DNA of 62,486 nt, the filler included, from Candidatus Fermentibacterota bacterium (GTDB lineage: Bacteria; JAFGKV01): NCBI GenBank assembly GCA_016928395.1. It is 4 parts of 4 records of this genome, joined end to end, with 100 filler letters (N's around TTAATTAATTAA, not from the genome) between each part and the next. Parts side by side here need not be neighbours in the genome. Positions count along the whole stretch, not along the records: positions 12,794 to 42,744 come from JAFGKV010000312.1; 3 more parts are not named here. One strand, given 5' to 3'. The notes under the pieces are model-generated. The model had not been told where the DNA came from. It did not search any database and worked only from the letters and a program-made list of their open reading frames with translations. This document shows positions 12,694-54,702 of this stretch, one piece after another. Position 1 is the stretch's first letter. The number at the start of each line of letters is the position of its first letter. A program made the position numbers and the translations under genes.

Positions 12694-12793
12694 NNNNNNN
12701 NNNNNNNNNNNNNNNNNNNNNNNNNNNNNNNNNNNNNTTAATTAATTAANNNNNNNNNNNNNNNNNNNNNNNNNNNNNNNNNNNNNNNNNNNN
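12694..12793. other. Artificial contig linker
   Basis: 44 N + TTAATTAATTAA (stops in all frames) + 44 N. Confidence 0.97.
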
Positions 12794-33245: not shown

Positions 33246-35987
33246 CTAGGAGCAGCCGGTGGTCGTGCCGCAGTTGGGGCACACGTAACACTTTCCGCTG
33301 CTGATGGTGATGCTCCCGCATGAGGGGCACGGCGGGCTGCCGATCTGGTTCTTGGCGGCCTGGGCGGCTTCGGCTTGGGACACGGGCAGCACGGCAAGCT
33401 CAAGCTGGGGCTGGCCGGTCATGGTATCTGCCTCCTCGGGAGCAAAGAACTTCAAGGCCAGCCAACGGAAGATGTAATCAAGGACGGATTTCGCGGTCGG
33501 GATCTGCGGGTTGGTCGTCGCCCCCGATGGCTCGAACCTGAGGTGACTGAACTTGTCAATGAGCACAGTGAGAGGCACGCCATACTGCAGCATGATGGAT
33601 GTGGCGGTGGCAAAGGAATCCATGAGCCCGCTGACCACGGATCCTTCCTTGGCCATGCGGACAAAGATCTCACCAGGGGATCCGTCCTCGTACTTGCCGA
33701 CCGTGATATACCCCTCATGGCCTCCGATGGAGAACTTGTGGGTAACCGCCAGGCGCTCCGCGGGGAGCCGGCGGCGCATGGGTTTTTTCGGAGCGGGCTT
33801 CGGGTCTTTCCTGACGGAGAGCGGCTGATCGTTCTTGCAGCCATCGCGGTAGATGCACACCGCTTTCAACCCCAGCTTCCACGCCTCGACGAAGATGTCG
33901 TAGATTTCGTCTACCGTCGTTTCGTGGCCGACATTCACGGTCTTGGAGATGGCGCCTGAGATAAAGGGCTGGACCGCGGCCATCATGCGGAGGTGGCCCA
34001 GAGGTCCGATGCAGCGGACGCCCCGCTCGGGCGTCAGCGCGCAATCGAACACGGGGAGATGATCATCGTGCAGACCTCCGGCGCCTTCGATGGTGCCGGT
34101 GCGCTCCACATGGTCAAGGATCTTGCCGGTCTCATGGGGAGCATACCCCAAGGTGGTCAGCGCCCTGGCCAGGGAGCGGTTCACCATGCGGATGGTGCCC
34201 CCGTCCACCATCTTCTTCGTCTTGACAAGGGCAATGTCGGGCTCGATTCCGGTGGTATCGCAGTCCATCATGAACGAAATGGTTCCCGTCGGCGCGAGCA
34301 CGGAAACCTGCGCATTGCGCACCCCGAAACGACGTGCTCCTTCGTCGGCCAGTTGCCAGACCTTGCGCACCGTATCCAGAAGGAGGGAGGGAACGCTCTC
34401 ACTATCGATCTCGTTGACTTTCTCTCGGTGCATGTTCAGCACCTTCTGAACCGAAGAGCGATTTGCCGAGTATTCCTCAAAGGGGCCCAGAAGTGAGGCA
34501 AGCTCAGTGGAAAACCTGTAGGCTTCTCCCGTCATCAGGGCGGTTATGGCTGCGGCCAGCGCCCGGCCCTGGTCGCTGTCATAGGGAAGGCCCAAAGACA
34601 TGAGCAGGCATCCGAGATTCGCATAGCCCAGACCCAGAGGCCGGTACCTGTGGCTGTTGGCTCCGATGCGGAGTGTCGGGTACTGCGCATTGTCCACGAT
34701 AATGTCCTGGGCGGCGATCATGATGTCCACCACGTAGCGGAACGACTCGACGTCGAATGCACCATCCTCCCCGACAAACTTGACAAGGTTCAGGGAGGCG
34801 AGATTGCAGGCGGAGTCATCCACGAACATGTACTCGCTACAGGGGTTGCTGGCGCGGATGCGCGTGGTGTCCGCGCAGGTGTGCCAGGCATTTGCCGTGG
34901 TGTCGAACTGCAGCCCAGGGTCGCCGCATTCATGGGCGCACTCGGCCATGAGCCGGAGAAGCTCCCGGGCGCTGCGGCGCTCCAACACCTCGCCGTTGGT
35001 CACCGCCCGCAGATTCCACTCGCCGCCCCGGAGCGCACGCTCCATGAAGTCATCGGTGACACGCACGGAGTTGTTGGAGTTCTGGAAGAATACCGAGGAG
35101 TACGCCTCTCCCGTAAGGCTGCCATCGTATCCCGCGGCGATAAGGGCCTTGGCCTTACGTTCCTCCCGGATCTTGCATTGCACGAATTCGGCGACATCGG
35201 GATGATCAACATCGAGGATGACCATCTTGGCGGCGCGACGGGTCTTGCCACCGGACTTGATGACGCCGGCAAACGCGTCGTACCCGCGCATGAACGAGAC
35301 GGGCCCCGATGCATGACCGCCGGAAGAGAGGCGTTCCTTGCTGGAACGTATCGTAGAAAGATTGGTGCCAGTCCCGCTGCCATGCTTGAACAGGGTGCCC
35401 TCAGTCTTGGCCAGATCAAGGATCGAGTCCATGGTGTCTTCCACGGAATTGATGAAGCAGGCCGAACACTGAGGCCGCTCCTCGATGCCGACATTGAACC
35501 AGACAGGGCTATTGAATGAGGCGATCTGGTGGAGGAGGATATGTGACAATTCCTCGGAGTAGACCCGGGCTTGGTCATCCCCGGAGAAGTACCCGTCCTT
35601 GATGCCCCACGCGGTGATCGTATCAACGACGCGGGAGATGAGTTGCTTGACGCTGTGCTCGCGGCTGCCGAGGTCGGGCGATCCCTTGAAATACTTGGAA
35701 GCGACCACATTGGTTGCCGTGGCCGACCACGATGCCGGAACCTCCACCTTTTCTTGTGTGAATACGGTCGTACCGTCCGCCGCGTTGATCGAAGCTGAGC
35801 GCTCCTCCCATTCCACGGCGTCGAAGGGATGGATCCCGGCACGGGTGAAGTGACGCCGAAGAAGGATTCCCCGGGCCGGTCCATCACCCGGGGCGGACCG
35901 AGGCGGGCGCCATCCTGAGGACTTCTGGGGCCAGAAAATCAACTGCCGTTCATCCACAGCCGAGTCGTCCTGAACTGCATGCTTCAT
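33246..35987 (-). CDS. nrdJ: Vitamin B12-dependent (class II) ribonucleotide reductase with C-terminal TSCPD domain
   Basis: FNSPVWFN, QCSACFI, GGKTRRAAKM, SNPCSEY, SACNLAS, APTGTI, GAISKTVN, YRDG; terminal CxxC..CxxC..GCS. Confidence 0.95.
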   Translation of the reverse strand: MKHAVQDDSAVDERQLIFWPQKSSGWRPPRSAPGDGPARGILLRRHFTRAGIHPFDAVEWEERSASINAADGTTVFTQEKVEVPASWSATATNVVASKYFKGSPDLGSREHSVKQLISRVVDTITAWGIKDGYFSGDDQARVYSEELSHILLHQIASFNSPVWFNVGIEERPQCSACFINSVEDTMDSILDLAKTEGTLFKHGSGTGTNLSTIRSSKERLSSGGHASGPVSFMRGYDAFAGVIKSGGKTRRAAKMVILDVDHPDVAEFVQCKIREERKAKALIAAGYDGSLTGEAYSSVFFQNSNNSVRVTDDFMERALRGGEWNLRAVTNGEVLERRSARELLRLMAECAHECGDPGLQFDTTANAWHTCADTTRIRASNPCSEYMFVDDSACNLASLNLVKFVGEDGAFDVESFRYVVDIMIAAQDIIVDNAQYPTLRIGANSHRYRPLGLGYANLGCLLMSLGLPYDSDQGRALAAAITALMTGEAYRFSTELASLLGPFEEYSANRSSVQKVLNMHREKVNEIDSESVPSLLLDTVRKVWQLADEGARRFGVRNAQVSVLAPTGTISFMMDCDTTGIEPDIALVKTKKMVDGGTIRMVNRSLARALTTLGYAPHETGKILDHVERTGTIEGAGGLHDDHLPVFDCALTPERGVRCIGPLGHLRMMAAVQPFISGAISKTVNVGHETTVDEIYDIFVEAWKLGLKAVCIYRDGCKNDQPLSVRKDPKPAPKKPMRRRLPAERLAVTHKFSIGGHEGYITVGKYEDGSPGEIFVRMAKEGSVVSGLMDSFATATSIMLQYGVPLTVLIDKFSHLRFEPSGATTNPQIPTAKSVLDYIFRWLALKFFAPEEADTMTGQPQLELAVLPVSQAEAAQAAKNQIGSPPCPSCGSITISSGKCYVCPNCGTTTGCS

Positions 35988-36459: not shown

Positions 36460-38043
36460 ATGACTACGAAGCGTCTGCGAAGGCTGTCGCAGCACATCGC
36501 GTCTCTACCAGCCTTGCCGACATTGGCGCCTGAGGCCTTCCAGGAGGCGTCCGATGCCGTGGATGCCCTCGTGCGCGACATCAGGGCTTTGGGCTCGGAG
36601 CTTCTCCTCGATGGGGCCTCACTGGTCACCTTAGCCAAGGATCTGCGTCGGATCGGTGATCCTTCTGCCTCTGAAATGGTCGCCGGCCACCTGGCGGAGG
36701 TGTTCATGGAGGCGGGACGGCCCCGAGAGGCCGCGCAGTTCCTCAAAGTTGGAGGTCTGGCGTGCACCGACCAGGGGCTCTTCCCTCCGGCGATTTCCAT
36801 GTTCGAGAGGGCGCTGGCTGCAGTCGCAGACGATGATCCCGAATTCGAGGCTGTGGCTATCCTCAACAACCTGGGCAATGCCCTTACCGAGTTGGAGCGC
36901 TTCGAGGATGCCCACGCTACATACGGAAGGGCGGCCAGACTTCTCGACGAAGCTCCCATGGACGCGTTCCAGAAGGCCCGGGGCGAGGAACCCGAGATGG
37001 TGCGGGGCACTGTCATCAACAATGCCGGATGGGCGCTTATGCGCCAAGGCAAACAGGCGGGTCGGGATCACGATCTGCTCATGCACGCAATCCGCGCTTT
37101 TCGGCAAGTACTTCAGGGTCGTCTCAGGCCGCGCACACGGATCATCGCCACGGGCAATCTGGCCGAAGCGTGCCTTCTCCGCGGGGAGATCGCCACCGCC
37201 GAACGTCTCCTCCAACCTCTGGAGGCCGAGTGTGTGGAATTGCGTCTGGAGCGGCTGCTCCCCGAAGTGTACCGCCGCCGAGCACAGCTTAGCGCTGCCC
37301 GGGGTCATGTGGAAAGCGCCATGTCCTGGACACGAAAGGCTCTGCAGAGCAGCCTGATCTTCACGAGCCCACGCCAGGAAATTCGGGTGATTGAGGTGTG
37401 TTTCGATCTCTTGAAAGAGCTTCTTGCATCCGAGGGAGACCGTATGACAGGTCTGGAGCGCTCGGGCGCCCAGGTACTGGGTGAACTCCTGGATCTTCTC
37501 GAGAGCAAAGATACCTACACCGGCGGTGATCATTCGCGACGTGTTGCCAGCCTTTCCCGGCGATTGGCTGCCCAATTGGACGATGCGTCGGGGCACGACG
37601 AGCGGCATCTCAAGACCGTGGAGTTAGGCGGTCTGCTCCACGATATCGGTAAACTCATGATCCCCTGGAGCCTTCTCAACCGACTCCGACCTCTGCAACC
37701 GCACGAGATTGAGCTTCTCCATCATCACGCGGCGGCAGGCGAGGCGCTGTTGATGGATATTGGGCTCCCCGAGTTGGCACGAATTGCCGGCGAACACCAT
37801 GAGCGACCGGATGGGACGGGCTATCCTCGAGGAATCACAGCCCTCAGTCTCGACGGGGCCGTGGTCGCGGTGGCCGATGCGTACGAAGCGATGACCTCAC
37901 CGTCGCGCCGGTATCGCCTTCCCCTACGCCCCAAGAGCGCCGTGGCAGAAGTGCTGGCCGCCTCGGGACATCAGTTTGTACCCTTGGCGGCCCAGGCACT
38001 GGAGGCGGTGATCCTACGCCGACCGCAGGCGCCTCGGCGCTAG
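36460..38043 (+). CDS. TPR-repeat + HD-GYP phosphodiesterase
   Basis: GAGGAGG SD; ILNNLGNA and INNAGWA TPR-like helices; HSRRVA, LHDIGK, HHERPDGTGYP, VADAYEAMTS. Confidence 0.88.
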   Translation: MTTKRLRRLSQHIASLPALPTLAPEAFQEASDAVDALVRDIRALGSELLLDGASLVTLAKDLRRIGDPSASEMVAGHLAEVFMEAGRPREAAQFLKVGGLACTDQGLFPPAISMFERALAAVADDDPEFEAVAILNNLGNALTELERFEDAHATYGRAARLLDEAPMDAFQKARGEEPEMVRGTVINNAGWALMRQGKQAGRDHDLLMHAIRAFRQVLQGRLRPRTRIIATGNLAEACLLRGEIATAERLLQPLEAECVELRLERLLPEVYRRRAQLSAARGHVESAMSWTRKALQSSLIFTSPRQEIRVIEVCFDLLKELLASEGDRMTGLERSGAQVLGELLDLLESKDTYTGGDHSRRVASLSRRLAAQLDDASGHDERHLKTVELGGLLHDIGKLMIPWSLLNRLRPLQPHEIELLHHHAAAGEALLMDIGLPELARIAGEHHERPDGTGYPRGITALSLDGAVVAVADAYEAMTSPSRRYRLPLRPKSAVAEVLAASGHQFVPLAAQALEAVILRRPQAPRR

Positions 38044-38132: not shown

Positions 38133-39248
38133 ATGCCGCGAACCATGAAGGCTGTGGTCAAGACTGCCCCTCACCTTGGGGCCGAATGGCGTGACGTGCC
38201 CGTGCCGATGCCCCTACCGGACTGGGTGCTCCTCAGGGTCCGGGCGACGTCCATCTGCGGGACCGATGTCCACATCTACGGGTGGAATCAATGGGCGCAG
38301 ACACGCATCGGCATAGAGAGACTTCCGCAGATACTAGGCCATGAGGTGGCGGGGGAGGTGGTGGAGGCCGGCTCGCAGTGTAGGTGCATCAGGGTGGGAG
38401 ATTACGTGTCCGCGGAGACCCACATCTATCACCCCGCAGATCTCCAGGCGATGCTGGGCCAGCGCCACATCGGTGAACGAATGAAGATCGTAGGCGTCGA
38501 TCACGACGGTTGCTTTGCGGAGTACTTCGCAGTGCCGGAATCGGTATGCTGGGTAAACGATGGGGCTATTCCGCCCGAACTGGCAGCGGTACAGGAGCCC
38601 ATGGGCAATGCGTGCTACGCCTTGCTAGGCGAGGATTGCGATGTTGCCGGCAAATCGGTGGTCATACTAGGAGACGGCCCCACGGCATTGTTTGCTGTCG
38701 GCATTGCTAGGGCCGTCGGTTTGACCACCATCGTGGTGATAGGCGCCTCGTCGTACGCATTAGGCATTGCGCGGCGAATGGGGGCGGATCACACGCTGGA
38801 CATCACCGATAGCGGCGTTGACCGCGTGCAGTACGTTCGTGACCTCACCGGCGGGTACGGCGCTGATCTTGTCCTCGACATGGTGGGAGCGGCCTCGGCC
38901 ATCCAGGAGGGGCTGAAGATCATCCGAAAGGGAGGCCGCTACAGCGCATTCGGAGTATCAGGAAGCGCCACGATTCCCATCGATTACAACAACGGCATTG
39001 TGTTCCGCGGTATCCAGATCCACGGCATTTCGGGCCGCAAACTGTTCGATACCTGGTATCGCGTCCGCAACCTGCTGGCCTCGGCGCGGGTGGATATTCG
39101 ACCGATCATCACTCATCTGCTGCCCCTGGAGCGCTTCACCGAGGGCTTTGAGACTGCCATGGGCACGCCCAGGCAGTGCGGCAAGGTTGTCCTCTTCCCG
39201 GATGCACAGGAGCTGGCGGCTGCCCGGCAGAGGATGAGCGCGACATAG
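38133..39248 (+). CDS. tdh: L-threonine 3-dehydrogenase-like Zn alcohol dehydrogenase lacking the structural-Zn cysteines
   Basis: TSICGTDVHIY.W..WA, GHE, VSAETHI, QEPMGNA, GISGRKLFDTWY, CGKVVL. Confidence 0.82.
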   Translation: MPRTMKAVVKTAPHLGAEWRDVPVPMPLPDWVLLRVRATSICGTDVHIYGWNQWAQTRIGIERLPQILGHEVAGEVVEAGSQCRCIRVGDYVSAETHIYHPADLQAMLGQRHIGERMKIVGVDHDGCFAEYFAVPESVCWVNDGAIPPELAAVQEPMGNACYALLGEDCDVAGKSVVILGDGPTALFAVGIARAVGLTTIVVIGASSYALGIARRMGADHTLDITDSGVDRVQYVRDLTGGYGADLVLDMVGAASAIQEGLKIIRKGGRYSAFGVSGSATIPIDYNNGIVFRGIQIHGISGRKLFDTWYRVRNLLASARVDIRPIITHLLPLERFTEGFETAMGTPRQCGKVVLFPDAQELAAARQRMSAT

Positions 39249-39492
39249 CGACTCATGCGCCGGATGCCGGGACATACCGGGACGACGCATGGAACTCACG
39301 ACGCGGTGACGGGGCGGATGGATGACGGGGAGACAGGATGAATGGAATGATGGGAGCGGACCACGAACCGTTTCCGCAACGCGCTGGAAGTTGGGGGTTT
39401 TGCTCAATCCTCACTGCGGGGGGTGTGGCCGGTCTGAAGGCCGATCCCTCTCTCTGTGAACCGCGAGTGAAGCTCGCTCCATTCCGCCGGGG

Positions 39493-39521
39493 TTGCCCTT
39501 GGGGGGCCTTGGCGCTATGCT
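39493..39521 (+). promoter_or_regulatory. Putative sigma70 promoter upstream of the ligase-ACP-kbl operon
   Basis: TTGCCC, 17 nt, TATGCT. Confidence 0.4.
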
Positions 39522-39717
39522 GCGCCCTCGCGAACGGGTATGAACCGGGGGATGCAGCGGCGTCTCCACGGCTCCCCGGCGCACGGCGCCCTCCAGGCCA
39601 TCGTGTCGTGAGCGCCGAGGGGAATCCGTTTCTGCCCGTGTGCGTCCGGGCCAGATGCCCAAGGCCCGACGGCCTGCCACCGATAAGGAAACAAGCACAC
39701 CGCCAAGGAGGAAAAGC

Positions 39718-41418
39718 GTGAGCAGTATGGGTCTGTACGAGGACCGGGTGAAGGATTTCGACTGGTCGATTTCCGAACAGGAATTGGAGTATGGCGCAGG
39801 CGGCATGTACAACATAGCGTTCTATTGCACCGATCGGATCTGCCAGAAGGGTTTGGGCGGCAAACCCGCCTTCATCTGGGAGGGGTTCAGCGGCCACGTT
39901 AAACAGTTCACCTACGATGATATCCGGGTTCACAGCAATGCCATTGCCCAGTTTCTGCAGAATCAGGGGCTGGAGCCCGGCGACAGAGTCTGCCTGTTCA
40001 TGGACCGGATACCGGAGCTGTATATCGGCTTTGTCGGCGTGCTCAAGATGGGCGCCATCGCGCAACCTCTTTTCTCCGCGTTCGGCGAGGAGGCTCTGTT
40101 CACGCGGCTGGAAGACGCCTCAACCAAGGCGGTGATCACGACCCGGAAGCACTTGGGAAAGGTGCGCCGCATCCGCAAGGACTTGCCGGCCTTGGCCACC
40201 ATCATCGTCGTGGATGCCGGCGAGAAATCGTTGGAACCAGGAGAGGTTGCATTCGACATGGAAGGGGCCGCCCGGGTCGAGGATTTTGATATCTATAAGG
40301 CCGGTCCGGAAACACCCTCGGTTCTTCACTACACCTCTGGCACCACCGGCAAGCCCAAGGGCGCGTTGCACGTACATTCCTCACTCATTGCGCAGTACCT
40401 GACGGCCAAGTGGGTCCTTGATATGCACCCCGACGATGTCTATTGGTGTACCGCCGATCCGGGATGGGTCACCGGCACGTCCTACGGGATCATCGGTCCG
40501 TGGGCCAACGGCGTGACGCAGGTGGTCCTCGATGCGGGATTCAGCGCGCAGAACTGGTATTCGTTCGCCGAGCGGATGAAGGTTACGGTCTGGTATTCAG
40601 CGCCCACGGCCATCCGGTTGCTCATGAAGGAGGGGATGGACCCCGTCCAGAAGCATGATCTCTCGACGCTACGACACCTGGTGAGCGTTGGAGAGCCGCT
40701 GAACGCCGAGGCGGTCATCTGGTCGGAGAAGGCCTTTGGCAGGCCGTTCCATGATTCGTTCTGGCAGACGGAGACAGGCTCCATCATGATCAGCAACTAC
40801 CCAGGAATGCGGATCAAGCCCGGCTCCATGGGAAAGCCCTTCCCAGGCATCACGGCCACTGTGGTGAACCCCAAGACCTTCGAGCCCGTGCAGACCCCTG
40901 GCACCGTAGGGCTGATCGCCATCAAACCCGGCTGGCCGTCAATGTTCCGTGCCTACTGGAACAACGAGCAAATTTACAACGCCAAGTTCAAGAACGGCTG
41001 GTACCTCTCGGGAGACCGGGCCAGCATCGATGGCGACGGCTACTTCTGGTTTGTCGGCAGGGATGATGACGTGATCAACACCGCCGGCCATCTTGTCGGC
41101 CCGTTTGAGATCGAATCGGCCCTGCTGGAACACCCCGCCGTGGCCGAATCGGCGGCGGTGGGGAAACCGGATCCCATCAACATGGAAGTCGTGAAGGCGT
41201 TCATCGCCCTCAAGCCGGGCTATGTCGCCGACGACGATCTGACGATGGATATCATGAACTTCATCCGCAAGAAGCTCTCACCCCTGGCAATGCCGCAGGA
41301 TATCGAGTTCGTGCCCTCCCTCCCGAAGACCCGTAGCGGCAAGATTATGCGTCGCGTGCTGCGGGCCCAGGAGTGGGGCGAAGATATAGGTGATGTTTCG
41401 ACCCTCGAGAATGAGTAG
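39718..41418 (+). CDS. acsA: Acetate--CoA ligase-like AMP-forming enzyme
   Basis: AGGAGG + GTG; YTSGTTGKPKG, WCTADPGWVTG, SVGEPLN, FWQTETG, GRDDD, PKTRSGKIMRR. Confidence 0.88.
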   Translation: MSSMGLYEDRVKDFDWSISEQELEYGAGGMYNIAFYCTDRICQKGLGGKPAFIWEGFSGHVKQFTYDDIRVHSNAIAQFLQNQGLEPGDRVCLFMDRIPELYIGFVGVLKMGAIAQPLFSAFGEEALFTRLEDASTKAVITTRKHLGKVRRIRKDLPALATIIVVDAGEKSLEPGEVAFDMEGAARVEDFDIYKAGPETPSVLHYTSGTTGKPKGALHVHSSLIAQYLTAKWVLDMHPDDVYWCTADPGWVTGTSYGIIGPWANGVTQVVLDAGFSAQNWYSFAERMKVTVWYSAPTAIRLLMKEGMDPVQKHDLSTLRHLVSVGEPLNAEAVIWSEKAFGRPFHDSFWQTETGSIMISNYPGMRIKPGSMGKPFPGITATVVNPKTFEPVQTPGTVGLIAIKPGWPSMFRAYWNNEQIYNAKFKNGWYLSGDRASIDGDGYFWFVGRDDDVINTAGHLVGPFEIESALLEHPAVAESAAVGKPDPINMEVVKAFIALKPGYVADDDLTMDIMNFIRKKLSPLAMPQDIEFVPSLPKTRSGKIMRRVLRAQEWGEDIGDVSTLENE

Positions 41419-41451
41419 CTGCACCACGGGTACTCACGGAAGGAGCCTCCA

Positions 41452-41709
41452 ATGGCAGACGATCTGAAACCCACCATCCTTGCCTATGTGAAGAAGGAAT
41501 ACCTCGACGAGGATTCCGACGAAGAGATCACCACCGGAACCCGGCTGATCTCCAGCGGCATCGTGGACTCGTTTTCCATGGTCTCACTCAAGCGCTTCCT
41601 GGAGAAGAAGTACGCCATCCAGATTCCGGATGCGGATGCCTCCCCCGAGGCGTTCGATACCGTGGATAGCATAGCCTCGCTGGTAATCCGCTTTCAGGCC
41701 AAGGCCTGA
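41452..41709 (+). CDS. Acyl carrier protein
   Basis: 85 aa, acidic; GIVDSFSMV phosphopantetheine Ser motif; AAGGAG SD. Confidence 0.88.
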   Translation: MADDLKPTILAYVKKEYLDEDSDEEITTGTRLISSGIVDSFSMVSLKRFLEKKYAIQIPDADASPEAFDTVDSIASLVIRFQAKA

Positions 41710-41722
41710 GCCGGAGGGCACA

Positions 41723-42744
41723 ATGGCGTTCTCTTCGGCTGCGCGCGCGTCATACCAGAACGAGATCTCCAGCCTCCGGGACCAAGGCCTGTTCAAGCAG
41801 GAGCGGTACATTCATTCGCCCCAGGCTGCCGACATTGAGGTCGAGTTTCCCATCGGTCAAGGCGTTGTGCCCAAGAAAGTCATCAACCTCTGCGCCAACA
41901 ACTACCTCGGGCTTTCCAGCCATCCTGACGTGCTCAAGGCAGCCCACGACGGGTTGGAGGCACGCGGGTATGGTATGTCGTCGGTGCGGTTCATCTGCGG
42001 CACGCAGGACATCCACCGTGAACTGGAAGACCGGTTGACCGCGTTTCTGGGCACCGAGGACACCCTGCTGTTTCCTTCATGCATGGACGCCAATGCCGGC
42101 GTGTTCGAGGCGGTACTGTCCCCCGAGGATGTCATGATCGCCGATCGTCTGGTGCATGCATCCATCGTCGACGGAATGCGGCTCTGTAAGGCCATGCAGG
42201 ATACCTACAAGCATTCCGACATGGGTCATCTGGAAGAGAAGCTTCAGGAACATCAGGACAAGCGCCACCGCCTGGTAATCACCGACGGCGTGTTCTCCAT
42301 GGACGGGGACATCGCTAAGTTGGATGAGATCGTGGAGCTGGCAGAGAAATACGATAGCATGGTGTTTGTCGACGATTCCCATGCCAGCGGATTCATCGGC
42401 AAGACCGGCAGGGGCACCCACGAGCACTGCGGTGTCCTTGGGCGGATCGACATCATCACCACGACGTTGGGTAAGGCTCTGGGCGGCGCTTCGGGCGGGT
42501 GCGTATCGGGGCGGAGCGAACTCGTAGAGTTGTGTCGCCAGCGGGCTCGTCCATATTTGTTTTCCAATAGCGTCGCGCCGGTCATAGTCGCCGGAGCCAT
42601 CACGGTGCTTGACCTTATCTCCAAGACCACCGAGCGACGCGACACGCTGGAGTGGAACACCACCTACTGGCGGAAGCTCCTTTCCGAGGCGGGGTTCGAC
42701 ATCAAACCCGGGGATTCCCCCATCGTCCCGGTGATGCTGTACAA
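41723..42744 (+). CDS. kbl: Glycine C-acetyltransferase (2-amino-3-ketobutyrate CoA ligase), truncated by gap
   Basis: NLCANNYLGL, GMSSVRFICGTQ, SCMDAN, HASIVDG, TDGVFSMDG, DDSHA, TLGKALGG, RARPYLFSN. Confidence 0.93.
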
Positions 42745-42844
42745 NNNNNNNNNNNNNNNNNNNNNNNNNNNNNNNNNNNNNNNNNNNNTTAATTAATTAA
42801 NNNNNNNNNNNNNNNNNNNNNNNNNNNNNNNNNNNNNNNNNNNN
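42745..42844. other. Artificial contig linker
   Basis: 44 N + TTAATTAATTAA + 44 N. Confidence 0.97.
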
Positions 42845-54602: not shown

Positions 54603-54702
54603 NNNNNNNNNNNNNNNNNNNNNNNNNNNNNNNNNNNNNNNNNNNNTTAATTAATTAANNNNNNNNNNNNNNNNNNNNNNNNNNNNNNNNNNNNNNNNNN
54701 NN
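54603..54702. other. Artificial contig linker
   Basis: 44 N + TTAATTAATTAA + 44 N. Confidence 0.97.

Follow-up and report, generated by a model that had tools for sequence, protein, structure and literature searches.

The classical pair of Tdh and Kbl works with free coenzyme A (CoA) and needs no ligase, no carrier protein, and no phosphopantetheinyl transferase (PPTase). In Caulobacter crescentus, AasR has been shown to acylate the carrier AcpR, whereas CoA and the housekeeping acyl carrier protein (ACP) are not acylated by it, and the serine palmitoyltransferases (SPTs) prefer acyl-AcpR (PMC9386255). Here, a locus is described which, unlike the Tdh–Kbl pair, joins a Kbl to an adenylating enzyme and a small carrier protein. 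It is located in a stretch of DNA of 62,486 nucleotides (nt) from Candidatus Fermentibacterota bacterium (assembly GCA_016928395.1), the whole of which is referred to as the window. The cassette of ligase, carrier, and Kbl is kept in hundreds of uncultured bacterial species and most likely conducts a reaction between acetyl and glycine on a private carrier instead of CoA; its three proteins probably constitute a self-contained module for two-carbon chemistry. The locus comprises the following features:

38133..39248, plus strand: Tdh-like medium-chain dehydrogenase, 371 amino acids (aa); TIGR00692, 353 bits (cut-off 458)
39249..39717, no strand: non-coding spacer of 470 nt between the tdh and ligase genes, where most relatives carry acpS; searches given below
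~39718..41418, plus strand: AcsA-type (PRK04319) adenylating enzyme, proposed acetate:carrier-protein ligase; NF003313, 776 bits
41452..41709, plus strand: dedicated carrier protein, 85 aa, attachment motif GIVDSFSM (Ser40); assigned by its homologue family and the D-S motif
41723..42744, plus strand: Kbl-type alpha-oxoamine synthase, truncated where the contig ends (340 codons present of ~415); NF005394, 489 bits
42745..42844, no strand: artificial contig joint N44-TTAATTAATTAA-N44; the same spacer occurs elsewhere in the window

All four open reading frames are found on the plus strand, as the original prediction had it, and the intergenic distances of 33 and 13 nt given there are correct: the ligase stop at 41418 is followed by the carrier start at 41452, and the carrier stop at 41709 by the Kbl start at 41723. 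The start of the ligase gene had to be revised. Its frame opens at 39640, which had been taken as the start, but the likeliest start codon is GTG at 39718, with AGGAGG (39707-39712) located 5 nt upstream, or else ATG at 39727.

This gene order is not peculiar to the window. The carrier family is represented by 556 species loci in the genome collection, distributed over Acidobacteriota, Myxococcota, Gemmatimonadota, Fibrobacterota, Ignavibacteriota/Bacteroidota, Aminicenantes, WOR-3, Zixibacteria, Latescibacteria, Krumholzibacteria, Calditrichota, Planctomycetota, and others. All synteny counts refer to the best 80 of these 556 loci, each from an uncultured genome, in which genes were called by homology anchoring. 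Wherever at least 400 nt of downstream sequence were available, a kbl gene was located directly 3′ of the carrier gene (77 of 77 loci). A ligase gene was located 5′ of it in 72 of the 78 loci with at least 1900 nt available upstream, either adjacent (67 loci) or further up (5 loci), and acpS directly preceded the ligase gene in 60 of 71 loci. The median gaps were 30 nt between ligase and carrier and 12.5 nt between carrier and Kbl. Thus, the order of ligase, carrier, and Kbl, for which a survey across genomes had been suggested along with the original prediction, is kept across many phyla, and this arrangement is far beyond chance.

The association between the components is also evident from natural fusions. 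P0123 (659 aa) and P0128 (664 aa) are ligase–carrier fusion proteins with the same junction. The former shares 70% identity with the window ligase and 67% with the window carrier, and its cluster contains six members, three of them full length, from Logan and two NCBI records (one labeled as a Vicinamibacterales metagenome-assembled genome). Judged from these two sequences, the carrier, rather than CoA, would be the thiol acceptor of the ligase. In P0126, P0129, and P0132, it is AcpS that is fused to the carrier, which links the PPTase to the carrier; fusion of a PPTase to its own substrate is unusual. Two further apparent fusions, P0130 (ligase–carrier) and P0131 (carrier–Kbl), were discarded as frameshift artifacts because a low-complexity, out-of-frame stretch separates their domains. 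Among 151 sampled Acidobacteriota genomes (one of which, G235, is unpublished and supports none of the claims made here), none showed an uninterrupted ligase–carrier frame.

The ligase of the window scores above the curated cut-off for acetate–CoA ligases (NF003313, 776 vs. 729 bits), and its closest solved structure, 9g79, aligns over the full length (565 bits) and was deposited as acetyl-coenzyme A synthetase. The tryptophan of the WQTETG motif, on which the prediction of a short acyl group had been based, is indeed present (FWQTETG). When aligned to Acs of Salmonella enterica (2p2f), the window ligase retains the equivalents of V310, T311, V386, and W414, the residues that form the acetate pocket of that enzyme, W414 acting as its gate. 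Among 68 cassette ligases, these positions are invariant in 68, 68, 68, and 67, respectively, and the catalytic lysine of the SGKI motif is retained as well. Because the pocket residues are nearly invariant, the acyl group is presumably acetyl-sized.

The carrier itself has no Pfam match at E up to 0.001, and some of its relatives carry PF00550. Its best NCBIfam match is a carrier protein, NF052616, at 51 bits (below the cut-off of 130), and at least 7999 relatives were found in the protein collection at E up to 0.001. The Asp–Ser pair of the attachment motif is invariant in 65 aligned cassette carriers. In a search of solved structures, the carrier profile matched the stand-alone carriers 6cxt, PigG, PltL, an aminoacyl carrier protein, and DltC (E down to 8e-14), and such stand-alone carriers outranked the ACPs of fatty acid synthesis. 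The top relative, 6cxt (54 bits), is deposited under an alpha/beta-hydrolase title. PigG, PltL, and DltC are each loaded by a separate adenylating enzyme.

The AcpS encoded in the cassette matches PF01648 and TIGR00516 and is an additional copy, as another AcpS is encoded elsewhere in four of the five cassette genomes that were searched (G001–G005). In the window, the place of acpS is taken by the spacer between the dehydrogenase and the ligase genes (39249-39717), in which tblastn revealed neither an AcpS-like frame nor a remnant of one at E up to 10. The spacer has no match in Rfam, no second copy of it occurs within the window or any of the 80 loci, and its predicted fold is unremarkable (z-score −1.24); counts of promoter and terminator patterns were at the level of shuffled sequence. 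No riboswitch or leader was found near the cassette in the 18 loci scanned. A thiamine pyrophosphate riboswitch in locus L030 and a 6S RNA in locus L043 are both located kilobases from the cassette.

The synthase had been described as clearly Kbl-type, and this assignment is borne out: despite its truncation, it exceeds the cut-off of the glycine C-acetyltransferase model NF005394 (489 vs. 460 bits), and it misses that of TIGR01822 (483 vs. 493 bits) because the fragment is incomplete. The full-length Kbl of locus L015 reaches 587 bits on both models. Against E. coli Kbl (1fc4), full-length cassette relatives of 415 aa reach 477 bits, and the motif TTLGKALGG with the lysine that binds pyridoxal phosphate (PLP) is retained in the window Kbl. 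These scores bear on the possibility that the locus encodes a long-chain amino-lipid or sphingoid-base starter pathway, in which an acyl-ACP synthetase, an ACP, and an SPT-like enzyme would cooperate as in Caulobacter. The gene architecture does match that of AasR–AcpR–SPT (PMC9386255). Such a sphingolipid-type pathway is nevertheless highly improbable and was rejected because the SPT models score the window synthase at only 290, 237, and 203 bits (cut-offs 640, 500, and 670), as opposed to 489 bits on the Kbl model, and because lipid genes, such as those for ceramide synthase or reductase, do not recur in the neighborhoods. The ligase is, furthermore, Acs-type with its acetate pocket retained.

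Within the Kbl family, the cassette enzymes stand apart. A quick LG+G4 tree of 86 rows was calculated, from which truncated and odd-length copies were excluded and for which third paralogs served as the outgroup. In this tree, 67 cassette Kbls, including that of the window, formed one clade (SH-aLRT 100) nested in the Kbl family; E. coli Kbl grouped with the non-cassette paralogs. The rows nearest to the window Kbl were those of Acidobacteriota (L062, L052, L059, L011), Candidatus Eisenbacteria (L015), and an uncultured bacterium (L033); given the mixture of phyla among cassette Kbls, these neighbors assign no taxonomic position to the organism. One cassette Kbl from a genome labeled Eubacteriales, Bacillota (L072) is nearly identical to that of Aminicenantes locus L035 (branch lengths 0.014 and 0.039), and this likeness, together with the mixing of phyla in the cassette tree, indicates horizontal transfer or mis-binned contigs.

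When 66 cassette rows were compared with 17 non-cassette rows, the cassette clade was distinguished by A133R, N135V, L264C, S268A, L298R, and V336K (E. coli numbering), and by a tail of 13 residues with a conserved lysine. Position 135 (144 in the window Kbl) immediately precedes the PLP-stacking histidine; it is asparagine in 17 of 17 ordinary Kbls and valine in 65 of 66 cassette Kbls, and the resulting local motif, ADRLVHAS, resembles the BioF motif, ADRLSHAS. This exchange may bear on specificity for the amino acid or for the thioester. The added basic residues R133, R298, and K336 would suit docking of an acidic carrier, and the calculated isoelectric point of the window carrier is 4.4. 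In a complex prediction, the Kbl dimer and the carrier of locus L015 scored 0.59, the best of three controls 0.00; contacts agreed between runs to at least 94%, and the partner had a pLDDT of at least 84. In calibration, 58 of 80 solved complexes reached the mark of the tool, as did 2 of 110 mismatched pairs; with a score of 0.60 or lower, it was reached by only 7 of the 80 complexes and by both mismatches. The tool rated the result as weak support for an interaction.

The same exchanges could mean that the architecture is used for other substrates, for example, propionyl in place of acetyl, or an amino acid other than glycine, resulting in a different amino-ketone that is perhaps the precursor of a pyrazine-type compound, a signal, or a cofactor. 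Not only the Asn-to-Val exchange but also several altered residues around the active-site loops speak for this, as do the absence of a nearby Tdh gene from most loci and the presence of a second Kbl over the cut-off in genomes G001, G003, and G004 and of a second, ordinary paralog within 14 of the 80 loci; coexistence of both enzymes suggests that their roles are not redundant. However, the acetate pocket of the ligase with its gating tryptophan is essentially invariant, the cassette Kbl reaches its 587 bits on Kbl equivalog models and is nested in that family, and the adjacent dehydrogenase, where present, is always best matched to Tdh. We therefore consider other substrates distinctly unlikely.

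Taken together, the conserved synteny, the acetate pocket, the separate Kbl clade, and the natural fusions make an acetyl-on-carrier shuttle the best reading of the cassette; on the same grounds, the earlier view of ligase, carrier, and Kbl as a functional unit for an acetyl-sized acyl group, and not for sphingolipid-type synthesis, is upheld. The mechanism, well motivated but unproven, would proceed as follows. The AcsA-type enzyme would adenylate acetate and then acetylate the phosphopantetheine thiol of the adjoining carrier, which would be primed by the dedicated AcpS in most genomes, none being encoded at the respective position in the window. The carrier would then be both the acceptor of the ligase and the thioester partner of Kbl, and the special-clade Kbl would interconvert acetyl-carrier plus glycine and 2-amino-3-oxobutanoate plus holo-carrier, with acetyl-carrier in place of acetyl-CoA. 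That Kbl takes the acetyl-carrier rather than acetyl-CoA is suggested by the genomic context, the fusions, and the clade-specific basic residues, and acetyl and glycine are the presumed acyl group and amino acid. The Tdh-like enzyme encoded upstream would link 2-amino-3-oxobutanoate to L-threonine.

This last protein falls below both curated cut-offs for Tdh, namely, that of TIGR00692 given in the list above and that of NF003808 (343 vs. 380 bits); Tdh is, despite these scores, by far its best family. Its closest solved relatives are archaeal L-threonine 3-dehydrogenases (3gfb, 306 bits; 2d8a, 302 bits). Alignment to both showed that the residues expected to bind the catalytic zinc are retained (the cysteine of SICGTD, histidine and glutamate of GHE, and the glutamate of QEP). 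Four cysteines of the archaeal enzymes, which form their structural zinc site, have no counterpart in the window protein. The neighboring dehydrogenase of a WOR-3 locus (L043) exceeds the Tdh cut-off at 485 bits.

How closely the cassette is tied to threonine was assessed in the five cassette genomes and in a sample of 81 WOR-3 genomes, 6 with and 75 without the cassette. The original prediction had anticipated that thrABC would be absent where the cassette is present. ThrC, however, scored above its cut-off in four of the five cassette genomes, which shows that the cassette does not generally replace the classical threonine pathway. Among the WOR-3 genomes, ThrC was present in 1 of 6 with the cassette and in 28 of 75 without (i.e., missing from 5 of 6 and 47 of 75, respectively; P = 0.41). 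Neither the thrABC prediction nor the reading of the locus as a route to threonine is supported in the form originally given.

The same sample bears on the link to Tdh. A Tdh-family gene was present in all 6 cassette genomes and in 29 of 75 others (P = 0.005, kinship ignored), and a Kbl over the cut-off in 5 of 6, always as the cassette copy, compared with an ordinary Kbl in 41 of 75 (P = 0.23); in the sixth cassette genome, Kbl is cut by a contig end. None of the 81 genomes contained more than one Kbl over the cut-off. Where the cassette is lacking, 26 of the 29 genomes with Tdh also have Kbl, and ordinary tdh–kbl pairs are adjacent in 11 WOR-3 genomes. The order in the cassette loci is tdh-acpS-ligase-carrier-kbl (G070, G080, L043, L064, and L067), which looks as if the genes for AcpS, ligase, and carrier had entered an ordinary tdh–kbl operon and the cassette Kbl had taken the place of the usual enzyme. 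This replacement pattern ties the module to threonine/glycine chemistry. In the 80 loci at large, a Tdh-family gene is located upstream of the cassette in 11; the association with Tdh that had been predicted is thus real, if partial.

Several observations weigh against the acetyl-on-carrier shuttle. Judged by the curated cut-offs, the ligase and Kbl both look like fully competent CoA enzymes, and the ligase retains the equivalent of R584 in S. enterica Acs, a contact to the CoA phosphate. In G002 and G005, the cassette copies are the sole Kbl over the cut-off and the sole Acs-like gene, and the ligase may therefore also serve CoA. In 6 of the 78 loci mentioned above, no ligase gene was found within 8 kb upstream of the carrier. 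The ligase–carrier and AcpS–carrier fusions are known from protein database records alone, the complex prediction is a weak pass, and no AcpS was detected next to the cassette in the window by tblastn of the spacer. Finally, a Tdh-family gene is adjacent in so few loci, and in G001, G003, and G004, no match to that family exceeded 166 bits.

A rival account is ordinary CoA chemistry, that is, a normal acetyl-CoA synthetase along with a Kbl/Tdh cleavage pair, the carrier and AcpS serving something else and merely traveling along. It gains from the equivalog cut-offs passed by both enzymes, from the title under which 9g79 was deposited, and from the two genomes in which the cassette provides the only genes of either kind. 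Nevertheless, we regard it as rather improbable, as in almost every locus the carrier gene is flanked by those of both enzymes at distances of ~30 and ~12 nt, ligase–carrier fusion proteins occur, the cassette Kbls are a separate clade with conserved residues and a tail of their own, and a second, dedicated AcpS is kept next to the cassette.

If the acetyl-on-carrier shuttle is accepted, it could run in either direction. ATP-driven condensation of acetate and glycine to aminoketobutyrate, and from there to threonine or aminoacetone, is slightly favored by us. A private carrier pool held fully acetylated at the expense of ATP could push forward a reaction that is otherwise biased toward cleavage, and the combination of an AMP-forming ligase with a dedicated carrier and a dedicated PPTase is the usual signature of a biosynthetic loading system. 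Cleavage of threonine, in which the ligase would receive the acetyl group back, is quite conceivable but falls a little short of being probable. It would agree with the cassette replacing Kbl in a normally catabolic operon, with the presence of ThrC in most cassette genomes, and with a DAO-family flavin adenine dinucleotide (FAD) oxidoreductase encoded after Kbl in WOR-3 loci (L070:9657-10787, L043, L064, and L067), the best families of which, sarcosine oxidase beta and glycine oxidase ThiO, are both far below their cut-offs. More broadly, many uncultured phyla might employ a CoA-independent acetyl shuttle in which ATP-charged acetyl-carrier drives Kbl toward threonine, or in which the reverse flow recovers ATP; this generalization is doubtful at present. 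In the reverse direction, threonine fermentation would recover ATP from AMP and pyrophosphate via the same ligase.

Some cassette loci contain further genes. Directly 3′ of kbl, a protein of 101 aa without known family is encoded in 16 of the 80 loci, which belong to several phyla (e.g., L003:9537-9842), making it a candidate for a fifth component of the module. Searches gave neither a Pfam family nor named relatives in the Atlas, and no member of its family is encoded in the window. It contains an invariant tryptophan, arginine, and glutamate and a C-terminal proline; its AlphaFold model consists of two helices, a hairpin, and a helix, at moderate confidence (pLDDT 74, pTM 0.48). In the Aminicenantes-type loci L029, L050, L075, and L077, a small hydrophobic-looking protein of ~125-160 aa without a Pfam family is encoded just 5′ of the carrier, and the ligase gene is located 1-2 kb further upstream or is absent from the 8 kb examined. 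The surroundings of the second Kbl were inspected in G001 and G004. No dehydrogenase was found among its Pfam-recognizable neighbors, which encode an Rce1-like protease, a glyoxalase-family protein, a CN hydrolase, and a C-terminal fragment of an AMP-binding protein. The glyoxalase-family gene (L087:2750-3433) adjoins the second Kbl of G001 and may be linked to detoxification of aminoacetone/methylglyoxal.

The cassette is located at the 3′ end of the second contig of the window, which is composed of four contigs placed end to end with N44-TTAATTAATTAA-N44 spacers between them (12694-12793, 42745-42844, and 54603-54702); genes flanking any of these spacers are therefore not neighbors in the organism. 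What had been taken for a recoverable gap at 42745 is such an artificial joint, identical to those at 12694 and 54603. Kbl is thus cut at residue 340 of ~415, and the DNA beyond 42844 is unrelated; the remainder of Kbl was not found elsewhere in the window. Among four sequencing runs compared, the probable source run gave one DNA contig of 795 nt that covers 41118-41912 and, being DNA, is silent on transcription, and the remaining matches were short, confined to conserved motifs, and from other organisms. Upstream of the Tdh-like gene, the window encodes a protein with TPR and HD domains (HD_5; 36460-38043) and, on the opposite strand, a class II B12-dependent ribonucleotide reductase with a TSCPD domain (33246-35987). 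Neither gene recurs next to the cassette in the other loci.

A conserved unit, the cassette is at present misannotated as a set of routine enzymes: because its genes receive the textbook annotations Acs, ACP, and Kbl, annotation pipelines and metabolic models count it as ordinary acetate activation plus threonine cleavage. If the acetyl-on-carrier shuttle were true, models of acetate, glycine, and threonine flux would be wrong at this node in Acidobacteriota, the Fibrobacterota–Chlorobiota–Bacteroidota (FCB) group, WOR-3, Myxococcota, and related bacteria of sediment and soil. An Acs-type enzyme would have been shown to load a protein thiol, and Kbl would join SPT (PMC9386255) as an alpha-oxoamine synthase taking a protein-bound thioester. 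Irrespective of its direction, the cassette would represent a new route in central amino acid metabolism hidden under routine annotations, and a compact, testable case of a cell insulating one thioester pool from the CoA pool.

In the open-access literature searched, no description was found of an ACP-linked Kbl or of a comparable acetate:ACP ligase. That free acetate can be attached to a protein-bound thiol at the expense of ATP has a precedent in CitC, which acts on the acyl carrier subunit of citrate lyase; it differs from the cassette ligase in ligase family, prosthetic group, and downstream chemistry. The pairing of one adenylating enzyme with one small carrier is shared with DltA–DltC, PltF–PltL, and PigI–PigG. 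These pairs load amino acids for the cell wall or for secondary metabolism, whereas the cassette couples an activator of acetate to a PLP-dependent Kbl. AcsA-type acetyl-CoA synthetases (PRK04319; 9g79) are similar to the cassette ligase over their full length (565 bits) and agree with it in the acetate pocket and the SGKI lysine; the cassette ligase differs in that its gene adjoins that of a carrier, to which it is fused in some lineages, and in that the carrier, not CoA, is its proposed acceptor. With the kbl–tdh pair of E. coli, the cassette has in common the same two enzyme families in one operon, as reflected by the 477 bits of the cassette Kbl against 1fc4. It departs from that pair by a Kbl of a separate clade with 415 aa, a C-terminal tail, and the Asn-to-Val exchange, and by a Tdh-like protein below the cut-off. 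The closest design is that of AasR, AcpR, and SPT in C. crescentus and other Rhodobacteria, in which a dedicated ligase of the ANL family, a specialized carrier, and an alpha-oxoamine synthase are clustered as well (PMC9386255). That system handles a long-chain fatty acyl group and serine to form a lipid base, whereas the cassette contains an Acs-type ligase with an acetate pocket and a Kbl, includes a dedicated AcpS in many loci, and is distributed over Acidobacteriota, the FCB group, WOR-3, Myxococcota, and other mostly uncultured phyla. The cassette may be regarded as a two-carbon version of the AasR/AcpR/SPT design.

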